58,880 bases of DNA from an uncultured Rickettsiales bacterium (GTDB taxonomy: Bacteria; Myxococcota_A; UBA796; UBA9615; CAYRNR01), in assembly GCA_964584075.1 (NCBI GenBank), contig CAZOYV010000005.1:5060-63939 (forward strand), in the 5' to 3' direction. A program made the position numbers and the translations under genes. The notes beneath the pieces were generated by a model. It was not told the DNA's origin and searched no databases. It saw only the letters and a list, made by a program, of their open reading frames with translations. Of this stretch, positions 9,932 to 30,766 are shown in pieces. Numbering within the stretch: the first letter of the stretch is position 1; each line of letters opens with the position of its first letter.

Positions 9932-12046
<2,115 letters not shown>

Positions 12047-12099
12047 GGTTCCCTCTTCTCGGGGCCCCGGCGCGTCGCTGTCGATTGGAGAACGCACGC

Positions 12100-12135
12100 G
12101 GGGGCGTTGCTGCAGTCCCCCCGAGCAACGCCCCC
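12100..12135 (-). promoter_or_regulatory. Perfect 12-bp hairpin in the rpsO-pnp spacer (possible RNase III/autoregulatory stem)
   Basis: GGGGGCGTTGCT (12100-12111) is the exact reverse complement of AGCAACGCCCCC (12124-12135); 12-nt loop. Confidence 0.55.
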
Positions 12136-12218
12136 ATGGCGCTGCTCCGTTCGGTCGTCTACCCCTGGGGAACCGCTCGGGTGGGGCGCCTCTCAGCGCC
12201 CCGGACTCCGGAGCACCG

Positions 12219-12485
12219 TCACTTGCGGATGCCGAGCGAGGCGATCAGCGTCTTGTACCGCTCGAGATCCTTCCGCTTCAGGTAGTCCAGCAGCCGGCGG
12301 CGCTGGCTGACGAGCTTGAGCAGCCCACGGCGGGACGTGTGGTCCTGCTGGTGGGTCTGGAGGTGCTCGGTCAGGTACTGGATGCGGTGGGTCAGCAGGG
12401 CGACCTGGACCTCGGGCGAGCCGGTGTCCGAGTCGTGGGTGCGGTACTGCTCGATGAGCTGCTGCTTGTCCTCGGGCGTGAGCAT
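12219..12485 (-). CDS. rpsO: 30S ribosomal protein S15
   Basis: [13 protein letters not shown], [15 protein letters not shown], LGIRK. Confidence 0.98.
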
Positions 12486-12598
12486 CTCGAACCTCCCGGG
12501 AGACCGATGACGCGCCCTCTTCGCGCGCCTGTCGGGAATCCCAGCGACGGGTTCCGGACACACCGGACCGGCACAACCGCCGGCTCGGCGAGGGGAGC

Positions 12599-12627
12599 AA
12601 CATAGTGGGAAGTCCCCGGGCTGTCAA
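12599..12627 (-). promoter_or_regulatory. Putative sigma70 promoter of rpsO-pnp
   Basis: Minus strand TTGACA-17 nt-TATGTT. Confidence 0.7.
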
Positions 12628-12647
12628 CGGTTCGCGGCGAGCGACGC

Positions 12648-13700
12648 TCAGGATGGCAGCACGCGCACGACCTTGAGCACCGGCGCGGCGGGCTCCATCT
12701 TGGCCGCCAGGTCGCCGCGGCAGGTGGCCTGCAGCACCGCGAGCGCCCGCCCGTCGGGCCCGCCGCCGATCAGCTGGGCCCCGGCCGCGAAGTCCAGCGC
12801 CGCCGCCCCGGCGAGGTCGCCGGCGCGGATCGGTCCACCGCTGCGCAGCCGCTGGCGGGCCGCGTCGCCCAGCGGGAGCTGGGGCAGCCCCACCGCGCGG
12901 GAGACCGGGACCAGCGCGTCGCCCAGCCGCTCGCTCCACCACGCCGTGGCCTCCTGGTGGGGCCAGCGCCAGCGGCGCTCCGCGTCGGGCGCGGTGCGCT
13001 CCGCCTCCTCCTCGCGGAAGCGGGTCCCGAGCTCGTCCAGCGCGTCCAGCGAGATCGCGTCCTGCAGCGGGAAGTGCCCCGAGCCCTCGCGCACCAGCTC
13101 GCTGAGGTGCGCGCCGCAGCCCAGCGCGGCCCCGATCTCGTCGACCATCACCCGCACGTAGGTCCCCGCCGAGCAGTGCACCCGGAAGCGGACGTCGGGC
13201 AGGTCCACCGCGAGCACCTCGACGGCGTGGATCGTGATCGCCTTGGGCTTGCGCTCGACCTCGATGTTCTGGCGGGCCAGCTTGTACAGCCGCTCGCCGC
13301 CGACCTTGACCGCCGAGTACATCGGGGGGATCTGCTCGATCTCGCCGACGTAGGCGAGCACCGCGTCTCGCACCTGCTGCTCGGTGAGGCCGTCCACGGG
13401 GTGCTCCCCGAGCACCGCCCCGGTGGGGTCCAGCGTGTCGGTGGTGACCCCCAGCCGCATCACCCCCTGGTAGCGCTTGTCGTCGGCGGTGAGCAGCGAC
13501 GCGACGCGGGTCGCCGAGTTGACGAGCAGCGGCAGGACGCCCGTGGCGAAGGGGTCCAGCGTCCCGCCGTGGCCCAGCTTGTGGATCCGCATCGAGGCGC
13601 GGGCACGGCTGACGGCTTGCTGGCTGGTGATGCCCGCGGGCTTGTCGAGGATCACCACGCCCTGGAGGTGGGGGTTGCGCAGGCGGTCACGGCGTCCCAC
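12648..13700 (-). CDS. truB: tRNA pseudouridine(55) synthase
   Basis: LDKPAGITS, GHGGTLDPFATGVL, PPMYSAVKVGGERLYKLAR, CSAGTYVR. Confidence 0.96.
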   Translation of the reverse strand: MGRRDRLRNPHLQGVVILDKPAGITSQQAVSRARASMRIHKLGHGGTLDPFATGVLPLLVNSATRVASLLTADDKRYQGVMRLGVTTDTLDPTGAVLGEHPVDGLTEQQVRDAVLAYVGEIEQIPPMYSAVKVGGERLYKLARQNIEVERKPKAITIHAVEVLAVDLPDVRFRVHCSAGTYVRVMVDEIGAALGCGAHLSELVREGSGHFPLQDAISLDALDELGTRFREEEAERTAPDAERRWRWPHQEATAWWSERLGDALVPVSRAVGLPQLPLGDAARQRLRSGGPIRAGDLAGAAALDFAAGAQLIGGGPDGRALAVLQATCRGDLAAKMEPAAPVLKVVRVLPS

Positions 13701-19425: not shown

Positions 19426-21275
19426 CGCCTCCTCGCCGTGCTCCAGGCCAGCGCCAGCGCGAGCAGCGCCAGCACGCCCGCGCCGCTGCGGCGCCCCACG
19501 GCGCAGCTCGCGCCCAGGTCGTCGTGCGGGTCGGTGCGCTCGAGGTACTCGTCGAGGTTGGTCACCCCGTCCAGGTCGGGGTCCTCGAGGGAGTCGTCGC
19601 GGGACGGCTCGAGGAAGTGCAGCCACTCCCAGACGTCCGACATCCCGTCGCCGTCCAGGTCCTCGGGCAGGGTCAGGTCGTGCTCCGCCCCGCCCCCGGC
19701 CTCGAGCTCCAGCAGCTCGGCCTCCTCCGGCCGGCGGCCGTCGCCGCTGTAGGTCGTGACCCAGCCCGGATCGCCGCCGCAGTACCGGTAGGGCTCCGCC
19801 GACAGGGTGTAGCGGCCGGGCCGCATCCCGGTCATCGCGAACGCCCCGTCCTCGTCGGCGCTGACCGCCAGCATCGACGGCTGACCCGCCTCCTCGGGCA
19901 GCGCGGTGACGTAGATCCGGCCCAGCGGGACCTGGCCCTCGCGCTGGCGCACCTGGCCGGTGAGGGTCGCCGCGGGGGGACACGCGACGGGTCCCAGGTC
20001 GAGGTCCTCGCCGGCCTCCACGGCCAGCAGCGTGGCCTCGGCGATGCTGGCACACAGCGCGTCGCCGCAGACGTAGCCCGCCAGGGACGCGTCGTCCCCG
20101 GGCAGCACGTAGAAGTAGTACTCGGCGGGGCCGAGCTGCGACAGGGTGAAGCGCCCGTCCTCGAGCGACCAGCTGGTGGCCGAGACGCCGGACAGCGGGA
20201 CCGCCTGGACCATCCCGCCCTCGAGCGGCTGCCCCCCGGCCTCGAGCGTCCCGGAGACCGTCGCCTCCGCGGGGAGCTCGAACGCCAGCCCGGAGACCAC
20301 CTCGTCCTCCTCGAGCGCCACCGGATCGGCCGGTGCCAGGGAGCCGTGGCCCGCGGCGGTGAGCTCCAGCGCGTACTCCCCCGGCGCCAGCCCGCCGAGG
20401 GCGAACGTGCCGTCCGCCTGGATCGAGACGCTGGACTGGATCCAGGGCTCGAGGCGGTGCACCGCCTCGACGACGCCCCCCGACACGGGCGCGCCCTGGT
20501 GGTCCGCGACCGAGCCGCTGATCACCGCACCCGTGGGGACCTCGACGTCGATCAGCGTCGTCTGCCCGCGGATCGCCCCCACCGGCACCGCGTCGGTCGG
20601 GCTGTAGACGCCGGGGTGGTAGATCACCGGCCGCCCCGGGGCGGAGATCTTCAGCTCGTAGTGGCCCGGCACCGGGTTGAGCGTCTCGGGATCGTCGATC
20701 GCCGAGTCGAGGCCGACGATCCGGAACGCCCCCTCGGCGTCGGTGTAGGTCGTCGGGTCGAGGTTGTTGTTGTAGTAGTCCAGCCCCTTGACGTCGACGC
20801 GCGCCTGCTCGATCGGCTCGCCGCTGACGGCGTCGGTGACGGTGCCCTCGATGGCGCCGCCGTGGGGCAGCTGGAAGTCGACCCCCTCGGCCACCGCCCC
20901 GCCGCGCAGGTCGAGCAGCCGCCCGGTGCAGTAGAAGTACGTGTCGCTGTAGTACGCGCCGATGAAGTCCTGGCCGTCCAGCGGCCACGCCTTGACCCGA
21001 TAGAACCCCGGGGTCAGCCCGGTCGCGGTGTAGTAGCCGTCGGGGTCCGTGACGAACACCTCGTAGCGCGCCTGGACGTCGAACGGCACCACCGAGATGT
21101 CGGCGATCGGATCTCCCTCCGGGTAGCTCACCACCCGGCCCCGGATCTCGGAGGTCGCTCCCTCGCGGGGCGTGATCGTCGGACCGTCGCCGGGACCGCC
21201 GCCCGGCACGGGCTGGCACGCCGCGAGCCCGACCGCGGCGACGAGGGCGAGCAGCACCGGGGTGGAGCGGATCAA
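19422..21275 (-). CDS. Surface lipoprotein with repeated carboxypeptidase-regulatory-like beta-sandwich domains, DxDGDG Ca-binding motifs and MYXO-CTERM-like tail
   Basis: Lipobox GLAAC; repeated 'I.G.V...G.P' / 'G.F...GL.PG.Y' units; DLDGDGMSDVWE, DPDLDGVTNLDEY; C-terminus SCAV..LALLALALAWSTARRR. Confidence 0.8.
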   Translation of the reverse strand: MIRSTPVLLALVAAVGLAACQPVPGGGPGDGPTITPREGATSEIRGRVVSYPEGDPIADISVVPFDVQARYEVFVTDPDGYYTATGLTPGFYRVKAWPLDGQDFIGAYYSDTYFYCTGRLLDLRGGAVAEGVDFQLPHGGAIEGTVTDAVSGEPIEQARVDVKGLDYYNNNLDPTTYTDAEGAFRIVGLDSAIDDPETLNPVPGHYELKISAPGRPVIYHPGVYSPTDAVPVGAIRGQTTLIDVEVPTGAVISGSVADHQGAPVSGGVVEAVHRLEPWIQSSVSIQADGTFALGGLAPGEYALELTAAGHGSLAPADPVALEEDEVVSGLAFELPAEATVSGTLEAGGQPLEGGMVQAVPLSGVSATSWSLEDGRFTLSQLGPAEYYFYVLPGDDASLAGYVCGDALCASIAEATLLAVEAGEDLDLGPVACPPAATLTGQVRQREGQVPLGRIYVTALPEEAGQPSMLAVSADEDGAFAMTGMRPGRYTLSAEPYRYCGGDPGWVTTYSGDGRRPEEAELLELEAGGGAEHDLTLPEDLDGDGMSDVWEWLHFLEPSRDDSLEDPDLDGVTNLDEYLERTDPHDDLGASCAVGRRSGAGVLALLALALAWSTARRR

Positions 21276-22606
21276 GAGCCGGCCGCCTCGAGGGTCCGCG
21301 AGGGGGCGTCCGCGGTCCGGTCGCCGCGCCGCGGCTCCTCGCGGGCCGGGTCGTCCCCCTCGCGGGCCGGGTCGTCCCCCTCGCCGTCGTGGGTCGCGTC
21401 ACGGCCGTCCCGGGCATGCGCCAGCTCGGCGTCGACGCGCTCGGCGAGGGCAATCGCGAAGCGGAACGCCTTGGTGCTGGTCGCCCGCTCCAGGTGACGG
21501 ATCCGGTCGCGGTCGGTGTGGACCGGGGTCGCCGGGCGCCCGCGGCGCAGCGCCTTGAGCGTCACGGCGGCGTAGCCGTGGCGGGTGGCGACGCCGGCGT
21601 CGCCGAGCCCGATGATGCGCACCGGCCGGACGTCGCGGAACGGACGGGTGCGGGCCAGGGCGGCGGCGTGGCCGGGCATCAGCGGGTGGTACGGCAGCTC
21701 GCCCGGGACCCGCTCGCCGGTGGCGAAGTGCAGGTCGCCGGCGCCCACGTCGTCCAGGTTGATCACGAACGTCCGCGCGCGCGGCAGCTTGCGGCCGAAG
21801 CTGGTCAGGAACGCGTCCATCCCCCCGCAGTCGGCCTCGCGCGAGCCGGTGACCAGGAACACCACCTCGGCGTTGCGCAGCGGGGACGCCGCGAAGTGCT
21901 CGGACAGCGCCGCGAGCACCGCCAGCCCCGAGGCGTTGTCGTTGGCCCCGCGGGCCGGGCGGGGGCGCATCCAGTCCAGCGCGAGCAGCACGATCAGGGC
22001 GAAGAACCCGACGGTGACGAGCAGGAAGCGATCGAGGATCTCCAGCTGGATCCCGGGCAAGCGCAGCAGGATCAAGGCCACCTGGGCCCAGGCGACCGCG
22101 AGCACGACGCGCATCGGGTGGGTCTTGAGCCGCCCTGCCGCGCCGTGGAACAGGCCGCCGAGCCAGCGGTTGTGGATCAGGCCGCGGCGGGCCACGTCCC
22201 CGTGGGCCACGAACACGACCAGCGAGGTGTCCTCGTCCACCTCGCGACGCATCCGGGCGATCAGGTTGCTGGAGACCTCCTTGGGCACGAACCAGCGCAG
22301 CAGCCGCCCGCGGAACACCGTCTCGCCGTACAGCGACACCAGCACGACGCCCGTGACGACGAGCCCGGCCAGCGCGCCGTCGACCGCGTGGTGGCCGGCC
22401 AGCAGCCCCCCGGCGACCAGCAGCAGCCCGTGGGCCAGCCACAGCAGCGCCGGGTTGGTGTGGCACACGCAGCCCTCGACCCGCGCCAGGTACCCGCGGC
22501 GCTGGAGCAGCCCGGCCATCGCCTCCTGCGCGGCGCGCTCGCCCACGCCGCCCGCGGTGCGATCCTCGAACTGCTCGAGCTGCTCGATGAAGGGCCGAAC
22601 CTCCAC
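21272..22606 (-). CDS. Membrane-embedded M28-family peptidase-like protein
   Basis: VAHGD, GANDNASG, NLDDVG, VHTDRD motifs, four TM segments; GTG at 22606 preceded by GAGGAG. Confidence 0.8.
   Translation of the reverse strand: MEVRPFIEQLEQFEDRTAGGVGERAAQEAMAGLLQRRGYLARVEGCVCHTNPALLWLAHGLLLVAGGLLAGHHAVDGALAGLVVTGVVLVSLYGETVFRGRLLRWFVPKEVSSNLIARMRREVDEDTSLVVFVAHGDVARRGLIHNRWLGGLFHGAAGRLKTHPMRVVLAVAWAQVALILLRLPGIQLEILDRFLLVTVGFFALIVLLALDWMRPRPARGANDNASGLAVLAALSEHFAASPLRNAEVVFLVTGSREADCGGMDAFLTSFGRKLPRARTFVINLDDVGAGDLHFATGERVPGELPYHPLMPGHAAALARTRPFRDVRPVRIIGLGDAGVATRHGYAAVTLKALRRGRPATPVHTDRDRIRHLERATSTKAFRFAIALAERVDAELAHARDGRDATHDGEGDDPAREGDDPAREEPRRGDRTADAPSRTLEAAGS
21337..21384. repeat. 21-bp tandem duplication (about 2.3 copies) encoding EGDDPAR in the M28 C-terminal tail
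   Basis: CCTCGCGGGCCGGGTCGTCCC at 21337-21357 and 21358-21378, plus partial CCTCGC. Confidence 0.85.
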
Positions 22607-22682
22607 GGCGGGTCTCCTCGGGCCAACTGTAGCATGGCGCGGGGGCCGGCAGCGGCTATCATCCCCGGTCGAGGAGGCGCCC

Positions 22683-24071
22683 GTGGAGCGCATCGTGGAG
22701 TGCCTGCCGTTCGCCGCCGAGGGGCACGAGTTCCTGCTGGCGATCCCCAGCTCGGCGATCTTCGAGGTCGACCCCGAGGTCGCCTCGTGGGTCCGTCGGG
22801 CGCGGGCGCGAGCGGAGGCACCGCCCGCGATCCCGCCCGAGGTCGCCACCCCGCTGCGGGCGCTCGGCCTGCTGGTCGCGGACGGGGCCCCGACCCCGGC
22901 GCTGCCCGACCCGGTCCCGCTCGGCGCCCCGCTGCAGACCCTGGTGCTGCACCTGACCCACCGCTGCGGGATGCGCTGCGACTACTGCTATGCGGAGCCG
23001 GGTGGCGCTCGGGGACGGGGCGGCGCGGGGGGCGCCCGGCCGGCCGAGATGACGCCGGAGCGCGCGCGGGCGGCGGTGGACTTCCTGTTCGATCAGGCGG
23101 CGCCCGAGGGGCCGCTGGGGATCACGTTCTTCGGCGGCGAGCCGCTGCTCAACCTGGCGGGGCTGCGCGCCGCGGCGGACCGCGCGCGACGCCGCGCCGA
23201 CGCCGCCGGCCGCCCGGTGCGGTTCTCGATCACGACCAGCGCCGTCCCGCTGCCCGCCGGCGCGGTGTCGCTGCTCGCCGAGCTCGGCGCCGAGGTGACG
23301 GTCTCGCTGGACGGGCCGGCGGCGATCCACGACGCACACCGGCGGCTCCCCGGCGGCGAGGGCAGCTACCGGACGACCGTGGACGGGCTGCGGCGGCTCG
23401 CGGCACGCCTGCCGGTGCACGGTCGCGCGACGCTGACGCGGCGGGCGCCCGACCCGGTGCCGGTGGTCGAGCACCTGCTGTCGCTGGGGATGGTCAGCGC
23501 CGGCGTCTCCACCGCCGACGTGCCCCCGGGGCCGCTGGCCTTCGACGACGAGGCCCACGAGATCCTCGGCGCCGGGCTGGAGGTCCTCGCCGCACGGTAC
23601 CTCGACGCGCTCCGTGCCGGCGGGCACCTGGGGTTCGCCAACCTGGACGGGTTGCTGCGCACCCTGCACCGCGGGACCCACCGCGCGCTGCCCTGCGGCG
23701 CCGGGGTACGGCTCGCGGCGTGCGACACCGACGGCACGCTGTACCTCTGCCACCGGCTGACCGGCGATCCGGCCCACGCCCTGGGCTCCCTCGCCACCGG
23801 CCTGTCCCCCGACCGCCCGGCGCGGCTGCGCGCCGCGAGCCTGCAGCGGCGCCCCGGGTGTGCGGACTGCTGGGCCCGTCATCTGTGCGGCGGGGGCTGC
23901 CACCACGCCCGCGCGCTGGCCGCCGCCGCGGGGCGCGAGCGGCCCGACGCCTGCCGCTGGCTGCGGCGCTGGTTCCGTACCGGCCTGGAGGTCTACGGCG
24001 CGGTGGCCGTCGAGCGGCCGGACGTTCTGGACAAATGGATCGATCCGCTCCCCCCCTGCGGAGTAGAGTAG
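22683..24071 (+). CDS. qhpD: Radical SAM/SPASM peptide maturase, QhpD/PeaB-like thioether cross-linker
   Basis: GAGGAGG RBS then GTG; N-terminal RRE-like IPSSAIFEVD; CxxxCxxC (CGMRCDYC); FFGGEPLLN; VSLDG; GFANL..LHRG..LPCGAG; LCHRL; CADCWARHLCGGGCHH; C-terminal WFRTGLEVY. Confidence 0.88.
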   Translation: MERIVECLPFAAEGHEFLLAIPSSAIFEVDPEVASWVRRARARAEAPPAIPPEVATPLRALGLLVADGAPTPALPDPVPLGAPLQTLVLHLTHRCGMRCDYCYAEPGGARGRGGAGGARPAEMTPERARAAVDFLFDQAAPEGPLGITFFGGEPLLNLAGLRAAADRARRRADAAGRPVRFSITTSAVPLPAGAVSLLAELGAEVTVSLDGPAAIHDAHRRLPGGEGSYRTTVDGLRRLAARLPVHGRATLTRRAPDPVPVVEHLLSLGMVSAGVSTADVPPGPLAFDDEAHEILGAGLEVLAARYLDALRAGGHLGFANLDGLLRTLHRGTHRALPCGAGVRLAACDTDGTLYLCHRLTGDPAHALGSLATGLSPDRPARLRAASLQRRPGCADCWARHLCGGGCHHARALAAAAGRERPDACRWLRRWFRTGLEVYGAVAVERPDVLDKWIDPLPPCGVE

Positions 24072-24076
24072 GCCCG

Positions 24077-24373
24077 ATGGCCGGACGGATCCGCCCCCTC
24101 AACCGCAAGGCCCGGCTGCTCGCCGGCGAGGCCCACGGCGACGTGCGCGGGCAGGCGTTCAGCGAGTGCTCCTCGGTCTTCGCGCCCGGCTGGGAGGTCG
24201 GCGAGTTCGGACAGCCCGATCCCTGTCCCTGGAAGCACGACCTCGAGATGTGCTGGGCGACCTGCTACTGGACCGGCCAGGTGCCGGACATGTACATGTA
24301 CCCCGAGTGGCTCGGCGCCTGTGCCAACATCAACCAGGACTGGCGCGACCTGTGCACCATCCCCGATCACTGA
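24077..24373 (+). CDS. qhpC: QHNDH gamma-subunit-like precursor peptide (CTQ/thioether RiPP), 98 aa
   Basis: Leader RPLNRKAR; core CSSVFAPGWEV..C....DL..C...CYW..QVPD...YP.W......QDWR.L matches the QhpC pattern CTTSFDPGWEV..C.....DL..C...CWW..QV.D...YP.W......QDWR.L; hidden at the end of ORF 21389..24373. Confidence 0.88.
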   Translation: MAGRIRPLNRKARLLAGEAHGDVRGQAFSECSSVFAPGWEVGEFGQPDPCPWKHDLEMCWATCYWTGQVPDMYMYPEWLGACANINQDWRDLCTIPDH

Positions 24374-25407
24374 TCCGCCGCGCCGCCCGGTCGGCCGCCC
24401 CGCTGCTGCTCGCCGCGCTCCTCGCGGCGGTTTCCGCCGGGCCACTGCGCGCCGAGACGGCGTGGGTCGCCAGCACCGCGATCCAGCTCGTCGATCTCGA
24501 CTCCGGGGCCCTCGCGGGGCAGCTCGTCGTGGCCGCCGACCAGGTGGTCGAGCAGATCGCGTTCGACCCGGCCGGCGACACCGCGCTGGTGGCCTCGATG
24601 GGGGGCCTGTTCCCGGTGGACCCCGACACCCTCGAGGTCGGCGCGCCGTGGTCGCCGCGGCCGACCTGCTCGGTGGCCCGCGCCGCCGCGGCCGACCGCG
24701 CCGTGGCGCTGCACCTGCTGCCCCCCGGGGAGGGGCTGGCCAACCGCGAGCGGGGCATCCCCTCGACGGTCACGCTGCAGGTCTACGAGGCCTCCAGCGG
24801 GACCCCGCTGGCCGCCGCGGAGGTCCACGGCCGGCCACTGCGCGCGGCGATCGCGCCCGACGGCGACCGGATCTACGTGCTCGACTCCAACGAGGCGCGG
24901 CTGTCGGTCTACGACGGGGCCGCCCGCCCGCTGGGCGAGGTCGACCTGGCCCCCGACGGCGCGGCGCCGGCGCTGTGCACCGACCTGGCGCTGGCCCCCG
25001 ACGGCGCCTCGCTGGCCGTGATGCGCCGCGGCCCGGGCGGCGCGGCGCTGCTGGTGGTCCACCCCCGCGACCCGGTGGCGAGCAGCGCGGTGCGCATCGA
25101 GCCGCTGGGCGCCGAGCCCCAGGCCCGCGGCGTGGCGCAGGCCCCCGACGGCGCGATCTTCCTGTCCGCGATCGGGCACCTGGCCCGCTACCACGCCGAC
25201 CGGCCGGGCGCCCTGTGGCGCGACGTCGGGCACCAGTTCTCGCTCGTCGCGGTGACCCCCAGCGGGCGGCACGTGGTGATGGCGACGCCGACCTTCGACG
25301 AGGCCCGCGGGACCGGCGCGGTGCTGGTCGCGGACCCCGAGGGCAACCCGCTGCGGGTGATCGAGCTGACCGGGCTGTCGCCCTACACCCTCGCCATCCA
25401 GCCGTGA
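24352..25407 (+). CDS. Secreted beta-propeller, QhpB (QHNDH beta subunit)/YncE-like; start uncertain (GTG 24352 or CTG 24370)
   Basis: Signal peptide LLLAALLAAVSAGPLRA; repeated blade motifs AFDPAG, IAPDGDRIYV, LAPDG, APDG, VTPSG; immediately after qhpC as in qhp operons. Confidence 0.7.
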   Translation: MHHPRSLIRRAARSAAPLLLAALLAAVSAGPLRAETAWVASTAIQLVDLDSGALAGQLVVAADQVVEQIAFDPAGDTALVASMGGLFPVDPDTLEVGAPWSPRPTCSVARAAAADRAVALHLLPPGEGLANRERGIPSTVTLQVYEASSGTPLAAAEVHGRPLRAAIAPDGDRIYVLDSNEARLSVYDGAARPLGEVDLAPDGAAPALCTDLALAPDGASLAVMRRGPGGAALLVVHPRDPVASSAVRIEPLGAEPQARGVAQAPDGAIFLSAIGHLARYHADRPGALWRDVGHQFSLVAVTPSGRHVVMATPTFDEARGTGAVLVADPEGNPLRVIELTGLSPYTLAIQP

Positions 25408-26288
25408 GCGCGCGCCCCGGCTGGCCCGGCCGCCCCCCCGGCCTGTCGCTGCACCTCGGGCCGGACCTCGAGCGGACGCCGACCGTCCCCCGGTGGGTCC
25501 CCGAGCCGCGCCGCGTCGACCGCGTCCGCACCGGCTCGTCGCTGTGCCCGCGGCTGCTGTCGCCCCCCGACCGGCTGCGCCACGCCGCCCACGCCGCGCA
25601 GCGCAGCGCCGCCCGGCTGGAGCTGGAGACCCCCCCGCTGGGCGACCGCGACCTCGACCGGCTGCGGCGCCTGCTGGATCGCCTCGACCAGGTCGCGCCG
25701 CGGGCCGAGGTGGTGGTCAACGACTGGGGGGCGCTGCGCGTCGTGCGCCGCGAGCACCCCTCGCTGGTGCCGGTGATCGGGCGGGTCCTGCACCGCCAGA
25801 TGCGGGACCCGCGGATCCCCGCGGTCGATCCCGCGCGCCTGGGCCGCTGGCCGGTCACGTGGGGCCGCGGCGCCGCCACGTCGCCGTCGTGGATCGCGCT
25901 GGTCCGCCGCTGGGGCGTCGGCCGGATCGAGCTCGACTGGCCGCTCCACGGGCTCGACCGGGCCGCCTGGCGCGACCCCGGGGTGGCGCTGTCGCTGCAC
26001 CTGCCGCTGGCGCTGGTCGCCGCCGGCCGCAGCTGCCTGCTGCGCGACCCCCGCGGCGCCGTGGATCGCGCCGACGGGGGCGACCGCTGCGACCGGTCGT
26101 GCACCCACACCGCCGTGCACCTCGAGGCGCCGTGGACGACGTCCGCGGCGGGCGCCCCGGCCGAGGTCCTACGGCTGGGCAACGCCGAGCTGGTGCGGCT
26201 GCCCGCGGAGACCCGCGAGGCCGCGCTGGCGTGGGCCGCGGACCCGGCGGGGCCGGACCGCGTGGTGCTGTTCCCGGAGGAGCCGTGA
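25404..26288 (+). CDS. U32-family Fe-S protein, UbiV-like partner subunit
   Basis: GTGA-coupled; RVRTGSSLC, EVVVNDWGAL, GRVLHRQMRDPR, RIELD, and C..C-x17-C-x3-C (GRSC..CDRSC) four-Cys pattern resembling UbiV. Confidence 0.7.
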   Translation: MSARPGWPGRPPGLSLHLGPDLERTPTVPRWVPEPRRVDRVRTGSSLCPRLLSPPDRLRHAAHAAQRSAARLELETPPLGDRDLDRLRRLLDRLDQVAPRAEVVVNDWGALRVVRREHPSLVPVIGRVLHRQMRDPRIPAVDPARLGRWPVTWGRGAATSPSWIALVRRWGVGRIELDWPLHGLDRAAWRDPGVALSLHLPLALVAAGRSCLLRDPRGAVDRADGGDRCDRSCTHTAVHLEAPWTTSAAGAPAEVLRLGNAELVRLPAETREAALAWAADPAGPDRVVLFPEEP

Positions 26289-27265
26289 GCGTCGCGATCC
26301 TGGCCCCCTGCGCCTCGGCCGACGAGGTCGAGCCGCTGGTGCGGGCCGGTGCCGGCGAGCTGTACTGCGGGGTCTACGACGAGGCCTGGGCACGGCGCTG
26401 GGGCCTGGGGGCGTGGCCCAACCGGCGCGGCCCGGGGCCCGGCAACCTGGGCAGCCTCGACGAGCTGCGCGCGCTGGGCGCGGCCGCCGGCGGCGAGGGG
26501 GTGCCGGTGTACCTGACGCTCAACGCCCCGTACTACGCCCCCGAGCAGGAGGACGCGGTGGTGCGCCTGGCCCACGAGGCCGCGGCGGGCGGCTGGGTCG
26601 CGGGGCTGGTGATCGGCGACCCCGGGGTGCTGGCCCGGCTGCGCGCCGAGGGCGTCGCCGCGCGGCTGGTGGCGAGCACGCTGTGCACCGCGCGCAACGC
26701 CGAGGCGGTGCGGTTCCTGGCGGAGTGCGGCGCCGCCCGCGTGATCCTCAGCCGCGAGCTGTCCGTCGCGGAGATCGTCGCGCTGCGCGGCGCGGTGCCC
26801 GGCACCGAGCTCGAGGTCTTCGTGCTCGGCGACGCCTGCGCCTTCGAGGAGGGCAGCTGCGCCACCGCGCACACGCTCCCCGATCACGGCGTGTACTGCA
26901 TGACCCCGTGGCGCTGCCGCGGCGCGGACCCGGCCGTGGAGCACGCGGTGGAGCAACACCGCCTGCGCCTGGCGAGCCTGGCGCCGCGGGGCTACGGGCC
27001 CCGCAGCGGGCTGCCGCTGGGCCCCTGCGGGCTGTGCGCGCTGCCCGAGCTGGCCGCCGCGGGGATCGACTCGGTCAAGATCGTCGGGCGCGAGGCGCAC
27101 CCGTACCGCAAGGTCCGCTCGGTGCAGATGGTGCGCCACGTGCTCGACGGGCTCGACGAGGGGGGGGCCGACGAGGCGCGGCGGCGGGCGCTGGCGCTGC
27201 GGGACGACCCCGGGGGCTGCCGCGCCGGGCTGTCGTGCAGCTTCCCCGAGCTGCGCCCGCGGTGA
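26285..27265 (+). CDS. U32-family Fe-S protein, UbiU-like
   Basis: GTGA-coupled; ILAP..AGAGELYCG, VYLTLN, RVILSRELSVAEI, ELEVFV, C-x6-C-x12-C...CGLC, DSVKIVGRE (U32 'S.KIEGR' motif). Confidence 0.88.
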   Translation: MSVAILAPCASADEVEPLVRAGAGELYCGVYDEAWARRWGLGAWPNRRGPGPGNLGSLDELRALGAAAGGEGVPVYLTLNAPYYAPEQEDAVVRLAHEAAAGGWVAGLVIGDPGVLARLRAEGVAARLVASTLCTARNAEAVRFLAECGAARVILSRELSVAEIVALRGAVPGTELEVFVLGDACAFEEGSCATAHTLPDHGVYCMTPWRCRGADPAVEHAVEQHRLRLASLAPRGYGPRSGLPLGPCGLCALPELAAAGIDSVKIVGREAHPYRKVRSVQMVRHVLDGLDEGGADEARRRALALRDDPGGCRAGLSCSFPELRPR

Positions 27266-27292
27266 CCCCCGTTTTTGCTACGATGACTCCCC

Positions 27293-27997
27293 GTGAGCGG
27301 GCGCTCCGTTCCCATCGCGGTGATCGACAGCGGCATCCACGCCGGCCACCCGCACCTCGCCGGCGTCCCGGTGGAGGGGCTGGCGGTGACCTCCGGGAGC
27401 GGCGGCCTGGGGCTGGTCCCCGACGACCGGGACGTCCACGGCCACGGCACCGCGGTCGCCGCCGCCATCGCGCGGCGCGGGGCGCCGGTGCGTCTGATCG
27501 GGGTCCGCGTGCTCGACCGCGCGCTGCGCTGCGAGGCCGCGGCCCTGGCGTTCGCGATCGAGGCCGGCGCGCGACGCGGGGCGGTGCTGATCAACTGCTC
27601 GCTGGCGACGGACGCGGAGGGCGCGCGTGATCCCCTCGCCGCGGCGGTGGCGCGGGCCGGCGAGCGGGGCGCGTGGGTCGTGGCGGCGGCGCCGGCGACG
27701 GGCCGGGGCTGGCCCGCCGATCTGGACGGCGTGATCGCCGCGGTCGCCGAGCCGGGCTGTCCCCCCGGGCGTTGCGTCCCGCGCGGCCCGCTGCGGTTCG
27801 GGGCCCACGGCGCGGCCCGTCCGCCGGAGGGGCGACCGCGGGCCGGCAACCTGGCCGGGAACAGCCTGGCCGCGGCGCACCTGACCGCGCTGGCGGCGGA
27901 GCTGGTCGCCGGCGGCGGGATCGACTCGGTGGCCCGGCTCGCCGGAGAGCTGGCGGATCGCTTCGGCGGGGGGCAGCGGAGAGGAGGGCACGGCTGA
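27293..27997 (+). CDS. Short S8 subtilisin-like protease without signal or propeptide, QhpE-like leader peptidase
   Basis: Catalytic triad VIDSG, HGHGTAVA, GNSLAAAH; 234 aa. Confidence 0.8.
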   Translation: MSGRSVPIAVIDSGIHAGHPHLAGVPVEGLAVTSGSGGLGLVPDDRDVHGHGTAVAAAIARRGAPVRLIGVRVLDRALRCEAAALAFAIEAGARRGAVLINCSLATDAEGARDPLAAAVARAGERGAWVVAAAPATGRGWPADLDGVIAAVAEPGCPPGRCVPRGPLRFGAHGAARPPEGRPRAGNLAGNSLAAAHLTALAAELVAGGGIDSVARLAGELADRFGGGQRRGGHG

Positions 27998-29511
27998 TGC
28001 CCGCATGGCGCTGGTTGGTGGCGGTGGGGTTGGCGTGGTGCGCGGTGGCGGGGGTGGCGGGCGCCAACCAGGGCGACATCATGGGGCTCGGGGCCGCGGC
28101 GATGGGCCGCGGGGGCGGCGGCGTGGCGATCGCCGACGACGTCTTCGCGCTGTACTACAACCCCGCGGGGATGGCCCAGGGCAACGGCGGGTTCTCGTTC
28201 GGCGCCCACGGCGGCCACATGCGGTTCCAGGGCTTCCCGCCGATCGCGTGGGACGCCACCAACGACGGGATCATCAACCCCGACAACCCGTACGACCGGT
28301 GGACCGTCAGCGAGGACGACTACGACGACCCCAGCGGCTACCACGCCGGGCTGGTCAAGGGCTACACCAAGTGGCTGCGGCTGGGGCTGTGCCTGTCGCT
28401 GCCGTGGAAGCGGATCATCTCCGTCGAGCAGGTCGACCCCTACCTCCCCTACTACGTCCGCTGGAAGAACCGGCCCCAGCGGATCAGCCTCTACGCCGGC
28501 CTCTCGGTCCAGCCGATCGACGGGCTGGCGTTCGGGTTCTCGCTGGCGATCCTGGCGCGCTGCAAGCTGGTCCTCGACTTCGACCTCGACGCGGCGATCA
28601 ACGACGAGCAGCTGCAGAACGGCACCGACGAGACGCTGGTCCTCGACTTCGACGTCAACCCCCGCTACATCGAGCTCGACGTGCGCCCGGCGTTCGCCCC
28701 GATCGCCGGCTTCCGGCTGGACATGAAGCTGTTCACCGACAAGCTCGCCGGGTGGAGCTGGGGGTTCGTCTACCGCCACCCGATCAACCTGCTGATCGAG
28801 CCGACGATCCTGGGGCTCAACCTGTACGGCAAGGCCGAGGACATCGGCTCGCTGGAGACGATCATCATCCCGCTGCAGGCGCGGGTGTTCTTCACCATCC
28901 TGGACTACTTCACGCCGCGCCAGATCGCGTTCGGCACCGCCCTGCGCAAGGAGCGCTTCAGCGCGTACGTCGACGTCTCGTGGAACCAGTGGTCCAAGGC
29001 GCTGCCCAGCGTCGGCCGGATCAACGAGACCGACACCGACGTCAAGATCGGCCTGATCGACCTCGACCCCACCGCCTACAACGCCCGCGACTACGATCCG
29101 CTGGGCTGGAAGGACACCTGGATCCTCCGCGTCGGCGGGGAGCTCACGCCGCCGGAGATGCCGATCCCGAACAAGCTCCGGTACCTGGGCTTCACCGTCC
29201 GCTTCGGCTACGCCTACGACCCCACGTGGGTCCCCGAGCAGACCGGGCTGACCAACTTCATGGACAGCGACCACCACGTGTTCTCCCTCGGCGGCGGGGT
29301 CCGCGCCGCCGACCCGTTCGAGTGGATCGACGGGCCGATCAAGCTCGACGCGTTCCTCCAGATCCAGAAGATGGTCGAGCGGACCCACACCAAGGACGCC
29401 AGCCTCGTCGCCGCGGACGGCAGCGTCCCGCCGGGGTATCCGCTGACGGGCGAAATCGTCAGCGACGGGATCGTGATCGCGGCGGGGGGGACGGTCACGT
29501 TCGTGTATTGA
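27997..29511 (+). CDS. FadL/OmpP1-family outer-membrane transporter
   Basis: TGATG-coupled to the S8 gene; signal peptide; AMGRGG.GVA.ADD..ALYYNPAGM hatch motif; WKDTW.LRVGGE, RFGYAYDPT; aromatic C-terminus. Confidence 0.85.
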   Translation: MPAWRWLVAVGLAWCAVAGVAGANQGDIMGLGAAAMGRGGGGVAIADDVFALYYNPAGMAQGNGGFSFGAHGGHMRFQGFPPIAWDATNDGIINPDNPYDRWTVSEDDYDDPSGYHAGLVKGYTKWLRLGLCLSLPWKRIISVEQVDPYLPYYVRWKNRPQRISLYAGLSVQPIDGLAFGFSLAILARCKLVLDFDLDAAINDEQLQNGTDETLVLDFDVNPRYIELDVRPAFAPIAGFRLDMKLFTDKLAGWSWGFVYRHPINLLIEPTILGLNLYGKAEDIGSLETIIIPLQARVFFTILDYFTPRQIAFGTALRKERFSAYVDVSWNQWSKALPSVGRINETDTDVKIGLIDLDPTAYNARDYDPLGWKDTWILRVGGELTPPEMPIPNKLRYLGFTVRFGYAYDPTWVPEQTGLTNFMDSDHHVFSLGGGVRAADPFEWIDGPIKLDAFLQIQKMVERTHTKDASLVAADGSVPPGYPLTGEIVSDGIVIAAGGTVTFVY

Positions 29512-29549: not shown

Positions 29550-29689
29550 GGAGGGTTCTCACGCAAAGGCGTAAAGTCGCAAAGAGCGGTAGGAGAACCA
29601 AGGACAATCTCCCTTCGACGGCCCCCCTCCGTGGGGCCCCTTCTCTTCTCCTCCCTTTGCGCCTTTGAGCCTTTGCGTGAGAACCCTCC
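29550..29689. repeat. Long imperfect inverted repeat (MITE/REP-like element) with internal 9-bp CGCAAAG periodicity
   Basis: Left arm 29550-29584 GGAGGGTTCTCACGCAAAGGCGTAAAGTCGCAAAG matches the reverse complement of 29655-29689 at 32 of 35 positions. Confidence 0.85.
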
Positions 29690-29794
29690 GCGCCTCTGCT
29701 CCCTTTGCGCCTTCTCCTCACTCTGTCCCCGATCCTCCCCGCTCCAGCGTCTCTGTATCGACGCCTCGATACAGCCCATACCTGGAGAGTCGCC

Positions 29795-30766
29795 ATGAGC
29801 CGCCGGATCGTCGCCGCCCTGCTCCCCGCATTGCTGCTGCTCGCCGCCCCCGGCTGCGAGATGCCGGACCCCGAGGCCGAGCTCGACGCCCGCATCGCCG
29901 AGATCATCGGCGGCGAGGTGGACGAGGACGACGAGTACCTGCCGGTGGTGGCGATCTACTTCTTCATCACGGTCTGGGAGGGCGGGCTGTGCTCGGGCAC
30001 GATCGTCAACGACGAGTGGATCCTGACCGCCGCCCACTGCCCGGTGGACGGCTTCGCGATGGGCTCCAGCCGGGTCTACGTCGGCCATGACATGAACGCC
30101 GGCGACGTGACCAAGCTGGAGTTCGACGAGGTCGAGATCCACCCGGACTACGGCTACGACTACGGCGTCCCGTTCAACGACGTGGCGGTGATCCACCTGG
30201 CCGAGCCCAGCCCGGTCGAGGGGATCCCGATCCAGCGCGACGAGCTCACCGACGATCTGATCGGCGAGGAGCTGACCTACGTCGGGTTCGGGGTCACCTC
30301 CAACGACCCCGACGCCCAGGTGGACGGGCTCAAGCGCCACGTGGACATCGAGGTCGCCGACGTCTACCCGTTCGACTTCGACGTGCTGTACTACGAAAGC
30401 GCGTCGACGGGGACCGCGCACGGGGACTCCGGCGGGCCCGCGCTGTACGACTTCGGCGACGGGCCGCGGGTCGTCGGCGTGACCTCGTGGGGCGGCGGCC
30501 AGTACGGTGTCAGCATGGCCGTCGACAAGATGGCCGACTGGATCGACGGCCACACCGGCGGCGACTCGGCCCCGTGGGACGACGACGACGCCGGCGACGA
30601 CGACGACTCCGCCGCGGACGACGACGACGGCGACGACGACTCGGCCGGCGGGGACGACGACGGCGAGGGCTGCGAGTGCCGCAGCGGCCCCGGCGGGACC
30701 ACCGCGGCCGGACTGCCGCTGGGGCTGCTGCTGGCACTGCTCGCCCTGCGCCGCTTCCGCCCGTGA
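29795..30766 (+). CDS. Trypsin-fold (S1) serine protease, lipoprotein with Asp-rich linker and MYXO-CTERM-like tail
   Basis: IIGG, CSGTI, LTAAHC, DVAVI, GDSGGP, GVTSWG; tail GCEC..LLLALLALRRFRP. Confidence 0.92.
   Translation: MSRRIVAALLPALLLLAAPGCEMPDPEAELDARIAEIIGGEVDEDDEYLPVVAIYFFITVWEGGLCSGTIVNDEWILTAAHCPVDGFAMGSSRVYVGHDMNAGDVTKLEFDEVEIHPDYGYDYGVPFNDVAVIHLAEPSPVEGIPIQRDELTDDLIGEELTYVGFGVTSNDPDAQVDGLKRHVDIEVADVYPFDFDVLYYESASTGTAHGDSGGPALYDFGDGPRVVGVTSWGGGQYGVSMAVDKMADWIDGHTGGDSAPWDDDDAGDDDDSAADDDDGDDDSAGGDDDGEGCECRSGPGGTTAAGLPLGLLLALLALRRFRP

Follow-up and report, generated by a model that had tools for sequence, protein, structure and literature searches.

Can a peptide fitted out to carry cysteine tryptophylquinone (CTQ) serve an enzyme that lacks the haem subunit and the tryptophan hydroxylase of its known relatives? 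The question is raised by a stretch of 58,880 bases (73% GC) from contig CAZOYV010000005.1 of an uncultured member of the Myxococcota, hereafter the window, which encodes a 98-residue precursor of the QhpC type, the gamma subunit of quinohemoprotein amine dehydrogenase (QHNDH). We consider it probable, at roughly three chances in four, that this precursor is the small subunit of a haem-less, two-subunit amine dehydrogenase; its tryptophan may be hydroxylated by a U32-type protein pair encoded in the same operon.

In the canonical system, the radical S-adenosylmethionine (rSAM) enzyme QhpD works in the cytoplasm and installs three thioethers, the tryptophan is dihydroxylated by QhpG, the protease QhpE cuts off a 28-residue leader and QhpF exports the peptide, and the haems of the alpha subunit are proposed to complete the oxidation (PMC7876137). 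The peptide is described first, followed by its operon, its unusual C-terminal tail, and the readings that compete with ours.

The gamma-type precursor

24077..24373, + strand: gamma-type (QhpC-family) precursor, 98 residues, supported by coding statistics, family models and alignments with solved chains

This open reading frame (ORF) is a genuine coding gene. The GC content at its three codon positions is 0.63/0.52/0.93, the phase of high GC at third positions (GC3) changes at each of its ends in a sliding plot, and its ATG lies 5 nt past the stop codon of the upstream rSAM gene, after a GGAG-rich stretch. The GC content of the window gives rise to long spurious frames throughout, and an earlier, sequence-only reading of the window had pointed out that the ORF is buried in one of them (a 1065-codon stop-to-stop frame, 21176-24373); GC3 and conservation argue against a spurious small ORF within a long GC-rich frame, a reading that was rejected. 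The same reading expected the gene to be missed by annotation, which was not the case: records of NCBI origin include the identical 98-residue protein from the window's contig, and a relative sharing 81% of its residues carries the name 'quinohemoprotein amine dehydrogenase subunit gamma [Myxococcota bacterium]'. The peptide belongs to a known family and already has that annotation.

The description of the peptide as a divergent gamma-type precursor hinged on a significant match to the QHNDH gamma profile, and two such matches were found. The peptide scores 64 bits against the equivalog model NF037958 (QH_gamma; cut-off 50, E = 9.6e-18) and 44.9 bits against Pfam PF08992 (cut-off 25, E = 1.2e-11), placing it above the curated cut-offs of both gamma hidden Markov models and in the same curated family as the solved gamma subunits of Pseudomonas putida (1jmx_G, E = 1.6e-10) and Paracoccus denitrificans (1jju_C, E = 5.8e-10).

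Translation of the ORF gave the residue numbering proposed earlier (Cys31, Glu40, Cys50, Asp55, Cys59, Cys63, Trp65, Asp71, Cys82, Asp88 and Cys93), together with the additional Trp52 and Trp60. Alignment with both solved chains also reproduced the proposed register, with Cys31/Glu40/Cys50/Asp55/Cys59/Cys63/Trp65/Asp71 opposite chain residues 7/16/27/33/37/41/43/49. The CTQ-forming pair Cys37/Trp43 of the solved chains thus corresponds to Cys59/Trp65, both invariant in all 28 sequences of the clade alignment used for conservation (A6), and the three Cys–acid pairs of the thioethers are present as Cys31/Glu40, Cys50/Asp55 and Cys63/Asp71 (7/16, 27/33 and 41/49). The acceptors of the QhpC thioethers, which we take to be Glu16, Asp33 and Asp49, agree with this alignment, and Asp33, aligned with Asp55, is the proposed catalytic base. 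Cys7, Cys27 and Cys41 are described as forming thioethers in QhpC (PMC11951088); the thioethers, the quinone and any disulfide of the window's peptide are predicted from its sequence.

The differences from the solved proteins listed in the earlier reading were likewise recovered. Four residues separate Cys50 from Asp55, compared with five in the solved chains, and Asp12, Trp42 and Pro44 of those chains are replaced by Ala36, Tyr64 and Thr66, so that FDPGWE becomes FAPGWE and CWWP becomes CYWT. To these are added two further cysteines and a Cys-x-x-Pro-Asp end. Ring 2 is not of one size throughout the clade: four intervening residues are found in most members, six in P0016 and L074, and eight in P0031 and P0033.

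The N-terminal part of the precursor carries the Asn-x-Lys-Ala motif common to the QhpC family, as Asn9, Lys11 and Ala12. Asn9 and Ala12 are invariant in nine close relatives, and 16 members of the five-cysteine QhpC type described below all have the corresponding Asn, Lys and Ala; this shared motif fits recognition of the leader by the maturase RiPP recognition element (RRE) domain, where RiPP denotes a peptide made on ribosomes and modified after translation (PMC13692751). Since residue 3 of the solved chains aligns with residue 27 and the canonical leader has 28 residues (PMC7876137), the leader probably spans approximately residues 1-24 and the core approximately residues 25-98.

The operon and the missing canonical parts

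The peptide gene lies in one operon, defined by GC3 phase and start-codon overlaps, which comprises genes for the rSAM enzyme, the gamma peptide, a propeller, a protein here called X294, a U32 protein, a QhpE-like protease and a FadL-like porin:

22683..24071, + strand: radical SAM/SPASM maturase, QhpD-like (TIGR03906, 268.4 bits; Pfam Radical_SAM, 48.8 bits); GTG start at 22683 after GAGGAGG
24352..25407, + strand: secreted beta-propeller, 351 residues, in the beta-subunit position; frame set by GC3, start overlapping the 3' end of the peptide gene
25404..26288, + strand: X294, UbiV-like protein, 294 residues; start overlapping the upstream stop in GTGA
26285..27265, + strand: U32-family protein, UbiU-like, 326 residues (PF01136, 116 bits, cut-off 22.4); start overlapping the upstream stop in GTGA
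27293..27997, + strand: subtilisin-like protease, QhpE-like, 234 residues (NF049966 QH_SP, 122.4 bits; PF00082, 33.4 bits)
27997..29511, + strand: FadL/Toluene_X-type outer-membrane protein, 504 residues (PF03349, 30 bits, cut-off 29.7); ATG sharing one base with the protease stop

The rSAM enzyme and the protease beside the peptide have the QhpD and QhpE models as their best family matches, at scores under the equivalog cut-offs. For other parts of the canonical system the models gave no match over cut-off. The window's genome (8.6 Mb, 95.9% complete) contains a single gamma gene, no match to the QhpA (TIGR03908) or QhpB (TIGR03907) model, and no match over the cut-off to QhpG; the best QhpG score, 68.9 bits, falls short of the cut-off of 240, and matches of this kind occur in 14/14 control genomes. 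QhpA, QhpB and QhpG also gave no tblastn match in any of 27 clade loci, whereas the same QhpA query recovers the alpha subunit in all 26 long loci of the five-cysteine type. At a canonical control locus from another family of the phylum, the corresponding models score 510 bits (QH_alpha), 315 bits (QH_beta), 214 bits (QhpE) and 426 bits (QhpG). The operon of the window contains a U32 pair, which would take the role of QhpG.

The arrangement is not confined to one genome. The gamma model matches 19 of 401 sampled genomes of the phylum, among them every one of the 15 genomes sampled from the window's Myxococcota order (55-64 bits; 4/4 in family f1, 9/9 in f2 and 2/2 in f3), in addition to the window's own genome; the remaining three, from another family, are canonical and score ~156 bits. 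Across the clade the gene order is rSAM, gamma, propeller, X294, U32, (ABC exporter), S8 protease, outer-membrane protein. In the loci of the 15 relatives, gamma and propeller are present in 15/15 and X294 with U32 in 12/15, one locus being cut by a contig end. A pattern scan with alignment A6, taking one genome per species, yielded 27 loci, in which tblastn located the propeller in 25, both X294 and U32 in 20 and the ABC exporter in 19. The FadL-type porin is retained downstream in relatives at 44-73% identity. The operon is conserved order-wide and translationally coupled.

The propeller has a hydrophobic, signal-like N-terminus and, in its own frame (24352-25407), no Pfam or NCBIfam match. 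A profile built from 16 propeller orthologues matches 1l0q_A (5e-14), 5c2v_B (2.1e-8) and the QHNDH beta subunit 1jju_B (2.8e-7).

The two genes that follow resemble UbiU and UbiV in being adjoining, in pairing a clear U32 protein with a shorter partner, and in encoding four conserved cysteines each with similar spacing. Cys185, Cys192, Cys205 and Cys248 of the U32 protein are invariant (CX6CX12CX42C), as are Cys48, Cys211, Cys229 and Cys233 of X294 in 13 orthologues (CX162CX17CX3C); UbiU and UbiV have published motifs of CX6CX16CX38C and CXnCX12CX3C, respectively (PMC6747719). U32 proteins have been proposed to act as prephenate-dependent, O2-independent hydroxylases (PMC10990095). However, the window's pair scores far under the equivalog cut-offs. 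The best NCBIfam match of the U32 protein is UbiU at 71.5 bits, well under the cut-off of 440, so that it is not a UbiU equivalog, and X294, which has no Pfam or NCBIfam match, reaches 17.5 bits on the UbiV model (cut-off 275). The presumed substrate would also differ, being a protein tryptophan and not a prenylated phenol.

The operon is flanked by two further protease genes:

21272-22849, - strand: M28 peptidase, divergent from the operon
29681-30766, + strand: trypsin-like protease whose hydrophobic C-terminal tail contains Cys, downstream of the operon

Both hold the same positions in many relatives and may therefore belong to the system. Directly after the porin gene lies an inverted repeat of 40 nt (29550-29689; 88% complementary, 60 nt between the arms), adjoined by short direct repeats, which could act as a terminator or represent an intergenic repeat element.

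The C-terminal tail and its two cysteines

24320..24367, + strand: tail codons Cys82 to Asp97 (Cys82, Asp88, Cys93, Pro96, Asp97), all five residues present in 61/61 unique clade sequences and invariant in alignment A6

The sequence-only reading regarded Cys82 and Cys93 as extra cysteines and proposed to look for their conservation in U32-associated homologues. Relatives were collected by an exhaustive search of cluster representatives (38 at E-values up to 0.001) and by a profile search, from whose 2791 family members the best 120 were used. The residues at positions 82/93/97 were then tallied in 211 unique sequences, a sample biased towards query and profile, and both this tally and the covariation counts below refer to sequences and not to independent events. 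Cys/Asp/Pro occurs in 135 sequences, Cys/Cys/Asp in 61, Ala/Gly/Pro in 3 (the canonical-type loci L036-L038 of the same phylum, at ~156 bits on the gamma model) and scattered other patterns in 12.

Against the two crystallised proteins both cysteines are indeed extra, Cys82 standing opposite Ala61 and Cys93 opposite Gly72 (or Gln). Cys82, however, is found family-wide (196/211); as the majority state in this sample it makes the two studied proteins the exception. The expected invariance of Cys82, Asp88 and Cys93 was observed in the clade (61/61), whereas the supposed link of Cys82 to U32 was not, since it is shared by 135 five-cysteine members. What sets the clade apart is Cys93 together with Pro96-Asp97, present in 61/61 unique clade sequences, the most distant at 38% identity; Asp97 without Cys93 occurs in only one further sequence of the tally.

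The five-cysteine type, whose members are named by their sources as Bryobacter, Blastocatellia and Acidobacteriia, allows the two features to be separated. It has Cys82 and Asp88 in common with the window clade, as well as an aromatic residue (Phe or Tyr) ahead of the CTQ tryptophan, but has Asp93 and Pro97 in place of Cys93 and Asp97, a ring 2 of canonical length and a constant QhpA neighbour. Of 80 metagenome loci of this type (L082-L160), the 26 that reach 12 kb or more were examined by a coarse tblastn search at 1e-5, which placed a QhpA homologue upstream in 26/26 and the X294-U32 pair in 3/26; QhpG gave no match within 10 kb in these loci by this coarse test, and most are without a located tryptophan hydroxylase. 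Cys82 is thus neither new nor tied to U32. Taken with the clade tally, the constant QhpA linkage shows Cys82 to be independent of the haem-less, U32 context, and Cys93-Asp97 to be tied to the haem-less clade. As markers of U32-associated systems both cysteines were rejected: Cys82 occurs with QhpA in 26/26 loci, and Cys93 occurs in loci without U32.

For the chemical fate of the two cysteines, we tentatively favour a Cys82-Cys93 disulfide formed after export, at somewhat under even odds. Positions 82 and 93 shift together, from Ala/Gly in canonical sequences to Cys/Asp (135) and Cys/Cys (61), and in one divergent lineage Cys81 and Cys91 are gained jointly. The mature protein would be periplasmic, and the small subunit of methylamine dehydrogenase, which bears tryptophan tryptophylquinone (TTQ), carries six disulfides (PMC7876137); both were counted in favour of a disulfide. 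Two observations sit poorly with a simple disulfide: a seventh cysteine, Cys32, is present in 23/61 clade sequences, and Pro96-Asp97, which accompanies Cys93 in 61/61, has no role in such a model.

The divergent lineage just mentioned (P0018 and L075, the latter at L075 4424-4714; 2/61) has about ten cysteines and has lost Asp71, a pattern that looks as if disulfides took over from thioethers.

It is also possible, if a little harder to favour, that the tail holds additional rSAM thioethers, Cys82-Asp88 and a CX3D ring Cys93-Asp97, giving five thioethers plus CTQ. The spacing of Cys82-x5-Asp88 equals that of Cys27-x5-Asp33 in the solved chains, as the earlier reading had noticed, and in the five-cysteine type Cys82 occurs without a cysteine partner (135 sequences) while Asp88 is kept in 140/140. 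Cys93-x3-Asp97, with its spacing retained in 61/61 clade sequences, corresponds to CX3D, the motif in which PapB forms its cross-links (PMC9413430). PapB, a ranthipeptide maturase, is also the second-best NCBIfam match of the adjoining rSAM enzyme (214.5 bits), and QhpD has been termed highly homologous to PapB (PMC13692751). Pro96-Asp97 is seen solely with Cys93, and its [VI]-Pro-Asp context echoes the acceptor of ring 3, Val69-Pro70-Asp71. The comparison has its limits: in the PapA/PapB (freyrasin) system a related rSAM/SPASM maturase makes Cys-to-Asp beta-carbon thioethers (PMC9413430), but on a short exported peptide with six repeats, which has neither a quinone cofactor nor a propeller partner.

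Three observations speak against additional thioethers. Asp88 is equally kept in the solved proteins (as Asp67), even though position 82 is not a cysteine in them, and its conservation is therefore uninformative about a Cys82-Asp88 thioether. Position 93 is Asp in 136/140 five-cysteine sequences and Cys in the window clade, which fits an 82-93 contact, and the joint gain of Cys81 and Cys91 points the same way. The fullest version of the proposal, a haem-less amine dehydrogenase with an O2-free tryptophylquinone made via the U32 pair and five thioethers including Cys82-Asp88 and the Cys93-Asp97 ring, is in our estimate unlikely. Some other fate of the two cysteines, as free thiols or as a metal site, appears rather less likely than either cross-link. 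Structure prediction did not separate these fates: an AlphaFold2 model of the peptide from the 28 clade sequences reached a mean predicted local distance difference test (pLDDT) score of 46.6, too poor to judge an 82-93 contact, and prediction of the peptide-propeller complex (residues 27-98 with 31-351, both alignments) scored 0.02 against a mark of 0.32 and weighs neither way.

Competing readings, proposed maturation and implications

Several results weigh against the assignment of the system as a whole. Two of the family assignments fall short of their cut-offs, the rSAM enzyme on its best NCBIfam match TIGR03906 (quino_hemo_SAM; cut-off 453) and the protease on NF049966 (cut-off 165). The propeller has no match to TIGR03907 (QH_beta) at E 0.001 and lies, by profile search, nearer an S-layer propeller than 1jju_B. 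For X294, alignment with the neighbouring U32 family by hhalign is a weak link (75% probability, E = 2.5e-5, 78 columns), and its predicted structure (pLDDT 78), a TIM barrel, resembles the U32 structure 5d88 (Z 13.1) about as closely as CutC (Z 13.4), in a tie, with other barrels at 11.3-12.7. Foldseek placed GH18 chitinases top by E-value at template modelling (TM) scores of 0.24-0.41, and 5d88 had the best TM score (0.44/0.51); on this model the fold comparison is non-discriminating among TIM barrels. No ABC exporter is present in the QhpF slot of the window operon, where the gap between U32 and protease genes is 27 nt (27265-27293), and the best match in the window's genome to a relative's ABC exporter is only 35% identical. 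Finally, the U32 pair is not in the operon of L031/L066, L032, L073 and L074, and in genome G087 (93% complete) U32 gave a weak match only (69.6 bits).

L073 and L074 are the most divergent loci, with the cysteines kept and no U32 nearby. Of the two f3 genomes, one retains the X294-U32 pair at another locus (L078) and the other has a weak U32 match only. Since some operons of the clade do without the pair, either a different hydroxylase is at work or the U32 link is not obligatory.

Some of these loci have other genes in the corresponding positions. In the f3 loci (L031 4475-5182, on the same contig as L066, and L032), the X294-U32 slot is occupied by a gene for a secreted, cysteine-rich protein of 235 residues that matches no family. 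In L073, the place between propeller and ABC exporter that the U32 pair takes elsewhere is filled by a gene (11339-13252) for a protein of 637 residues, which has a MopE-type copper-binding motif and a PKD-like domain. The ABC exporter is also absent from two related genera of the window's family (L025 and L029, contigs of L053 and L057).

The operon might alternatively make an exported, cross-linked ranthipeptide-like product and no enzyme subunit at all, with propeller and porin serving export, immunity or sensing. An rSAM/SPASM enzyme, a leader peptide, an S8 protease and an ABC exporter (19/27 loci) are typical of RiPP clusters, neither the haem subunit nor a clear QhpB is present, and some clade members have no linked hydroxylase. 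Against this, the CTQ pair Cys59/Trp65 and Asp55 are invariant in 28/28 sequences; the peptide scores above the gamma equivalog cut-off, and a propeller whose profile matches the QHNDH beta subunit (E = 2.8e-7) follows it in 25/27 loci, and we regard this alternative as improbable. Hardly to be expected is a metal or iron-sulfur centre held by Cys82 and Cys93, perhaps aided by conserved acidic residues, as an electron outlet in place of the lost haems, for although the absence of the haem subunit leaves an electron acceptor missing and L073 has its copper-motif protein in the operon, two cysteines are insufficient for a cluster, residue 98 is variable (His, Asn, Ile, Leu, Thr), and Cys82 is found likewise in haem-containing operons (26/26).

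We therefore return to the amine dehydrogenase reading, for which we propose an order of events as in the canonical system, with the U32 pair in the role of QhpG. The QhpD-like rSAM enzyme would bind the leader and form the thioethers Cys31-Glu40, Cys50-Asp55 and Cys63-Asp71. The UbiV-like and UbiU-like pair, replacing QhpG, would then hydroxylate Trp65 without O2, and Cys59-Trp65 would become cysteine tryptophylquinone. After removal of the leader by the QhpE-like protease, the peptide would be exported; an ABC exporter is available for this step in the operon of most relatives, though none is present there in the window genome. Peptide and secreted propeller would together form the haem-less two-subunit amine dehydrogenase, to which the FadL-type porin may bring a hydrophobic substrate. 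Cys82 and Cys93 would staple the C-terminal tail, which may offset the loss of the alpha subunit that wraps the canonical gamma subunit.

A precedent for such an architecture is methylamine dehydrogenase, likewise a haem-less two-subunit quinoprotein in which a small cofactor subunit is combined with a propeller, as we suppose for the window's protein, and whose small subunit is disulfide-stabilised (PMC7876137). It differs in belonging to another family, in containing TTQ and not CTQ, and in periplasmic maturation by the dihaem protein MauG.

What appears to be new is the predicted haem-less variant without QhpG, with a U32 pair and a Cys...Pro-Asp tail, of which we found none in print. It is not mentioned in the QhpC/QhpD passages of PMC7876137, PMC13692751 and PMC11951088, and the term U32 does not occur in PMC7876137, the one paper in which it was sought. 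No paper linking tryptophylquinone or quinohemoprotein with U32 was found in a search of the main text of freely accessible papers. To our knowledge, tryptophylquinone cofactors have so far been known only from maturation by O2-dependent flavoproteins (QhpG, LodB, GoxB) or by dihaem MauG.

If the reading is correct, tryptophylquinone formation can be independent of O2, and the route is directly testable in an operon that keeps all cofactor residues, lacks QhpG and encodes a UbiU/UbiV-like pair; it would also provide the first protein substrate for U32 hydroxylases. Because neither of the two proteins studied so far has the family-wide Cys82, the five-cysteine type, which forms the largest group in this biased sample, may contain a fourth cross-link that has escaped notice. 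If the proposed steps hold, a gamma cage is possible in the absence of the haem subunit, which is wrapped around it in both solved enzymes, and the C-terminal tail would have acquired its invariant Cys...Pro-Asp element upon loss of that subunit.

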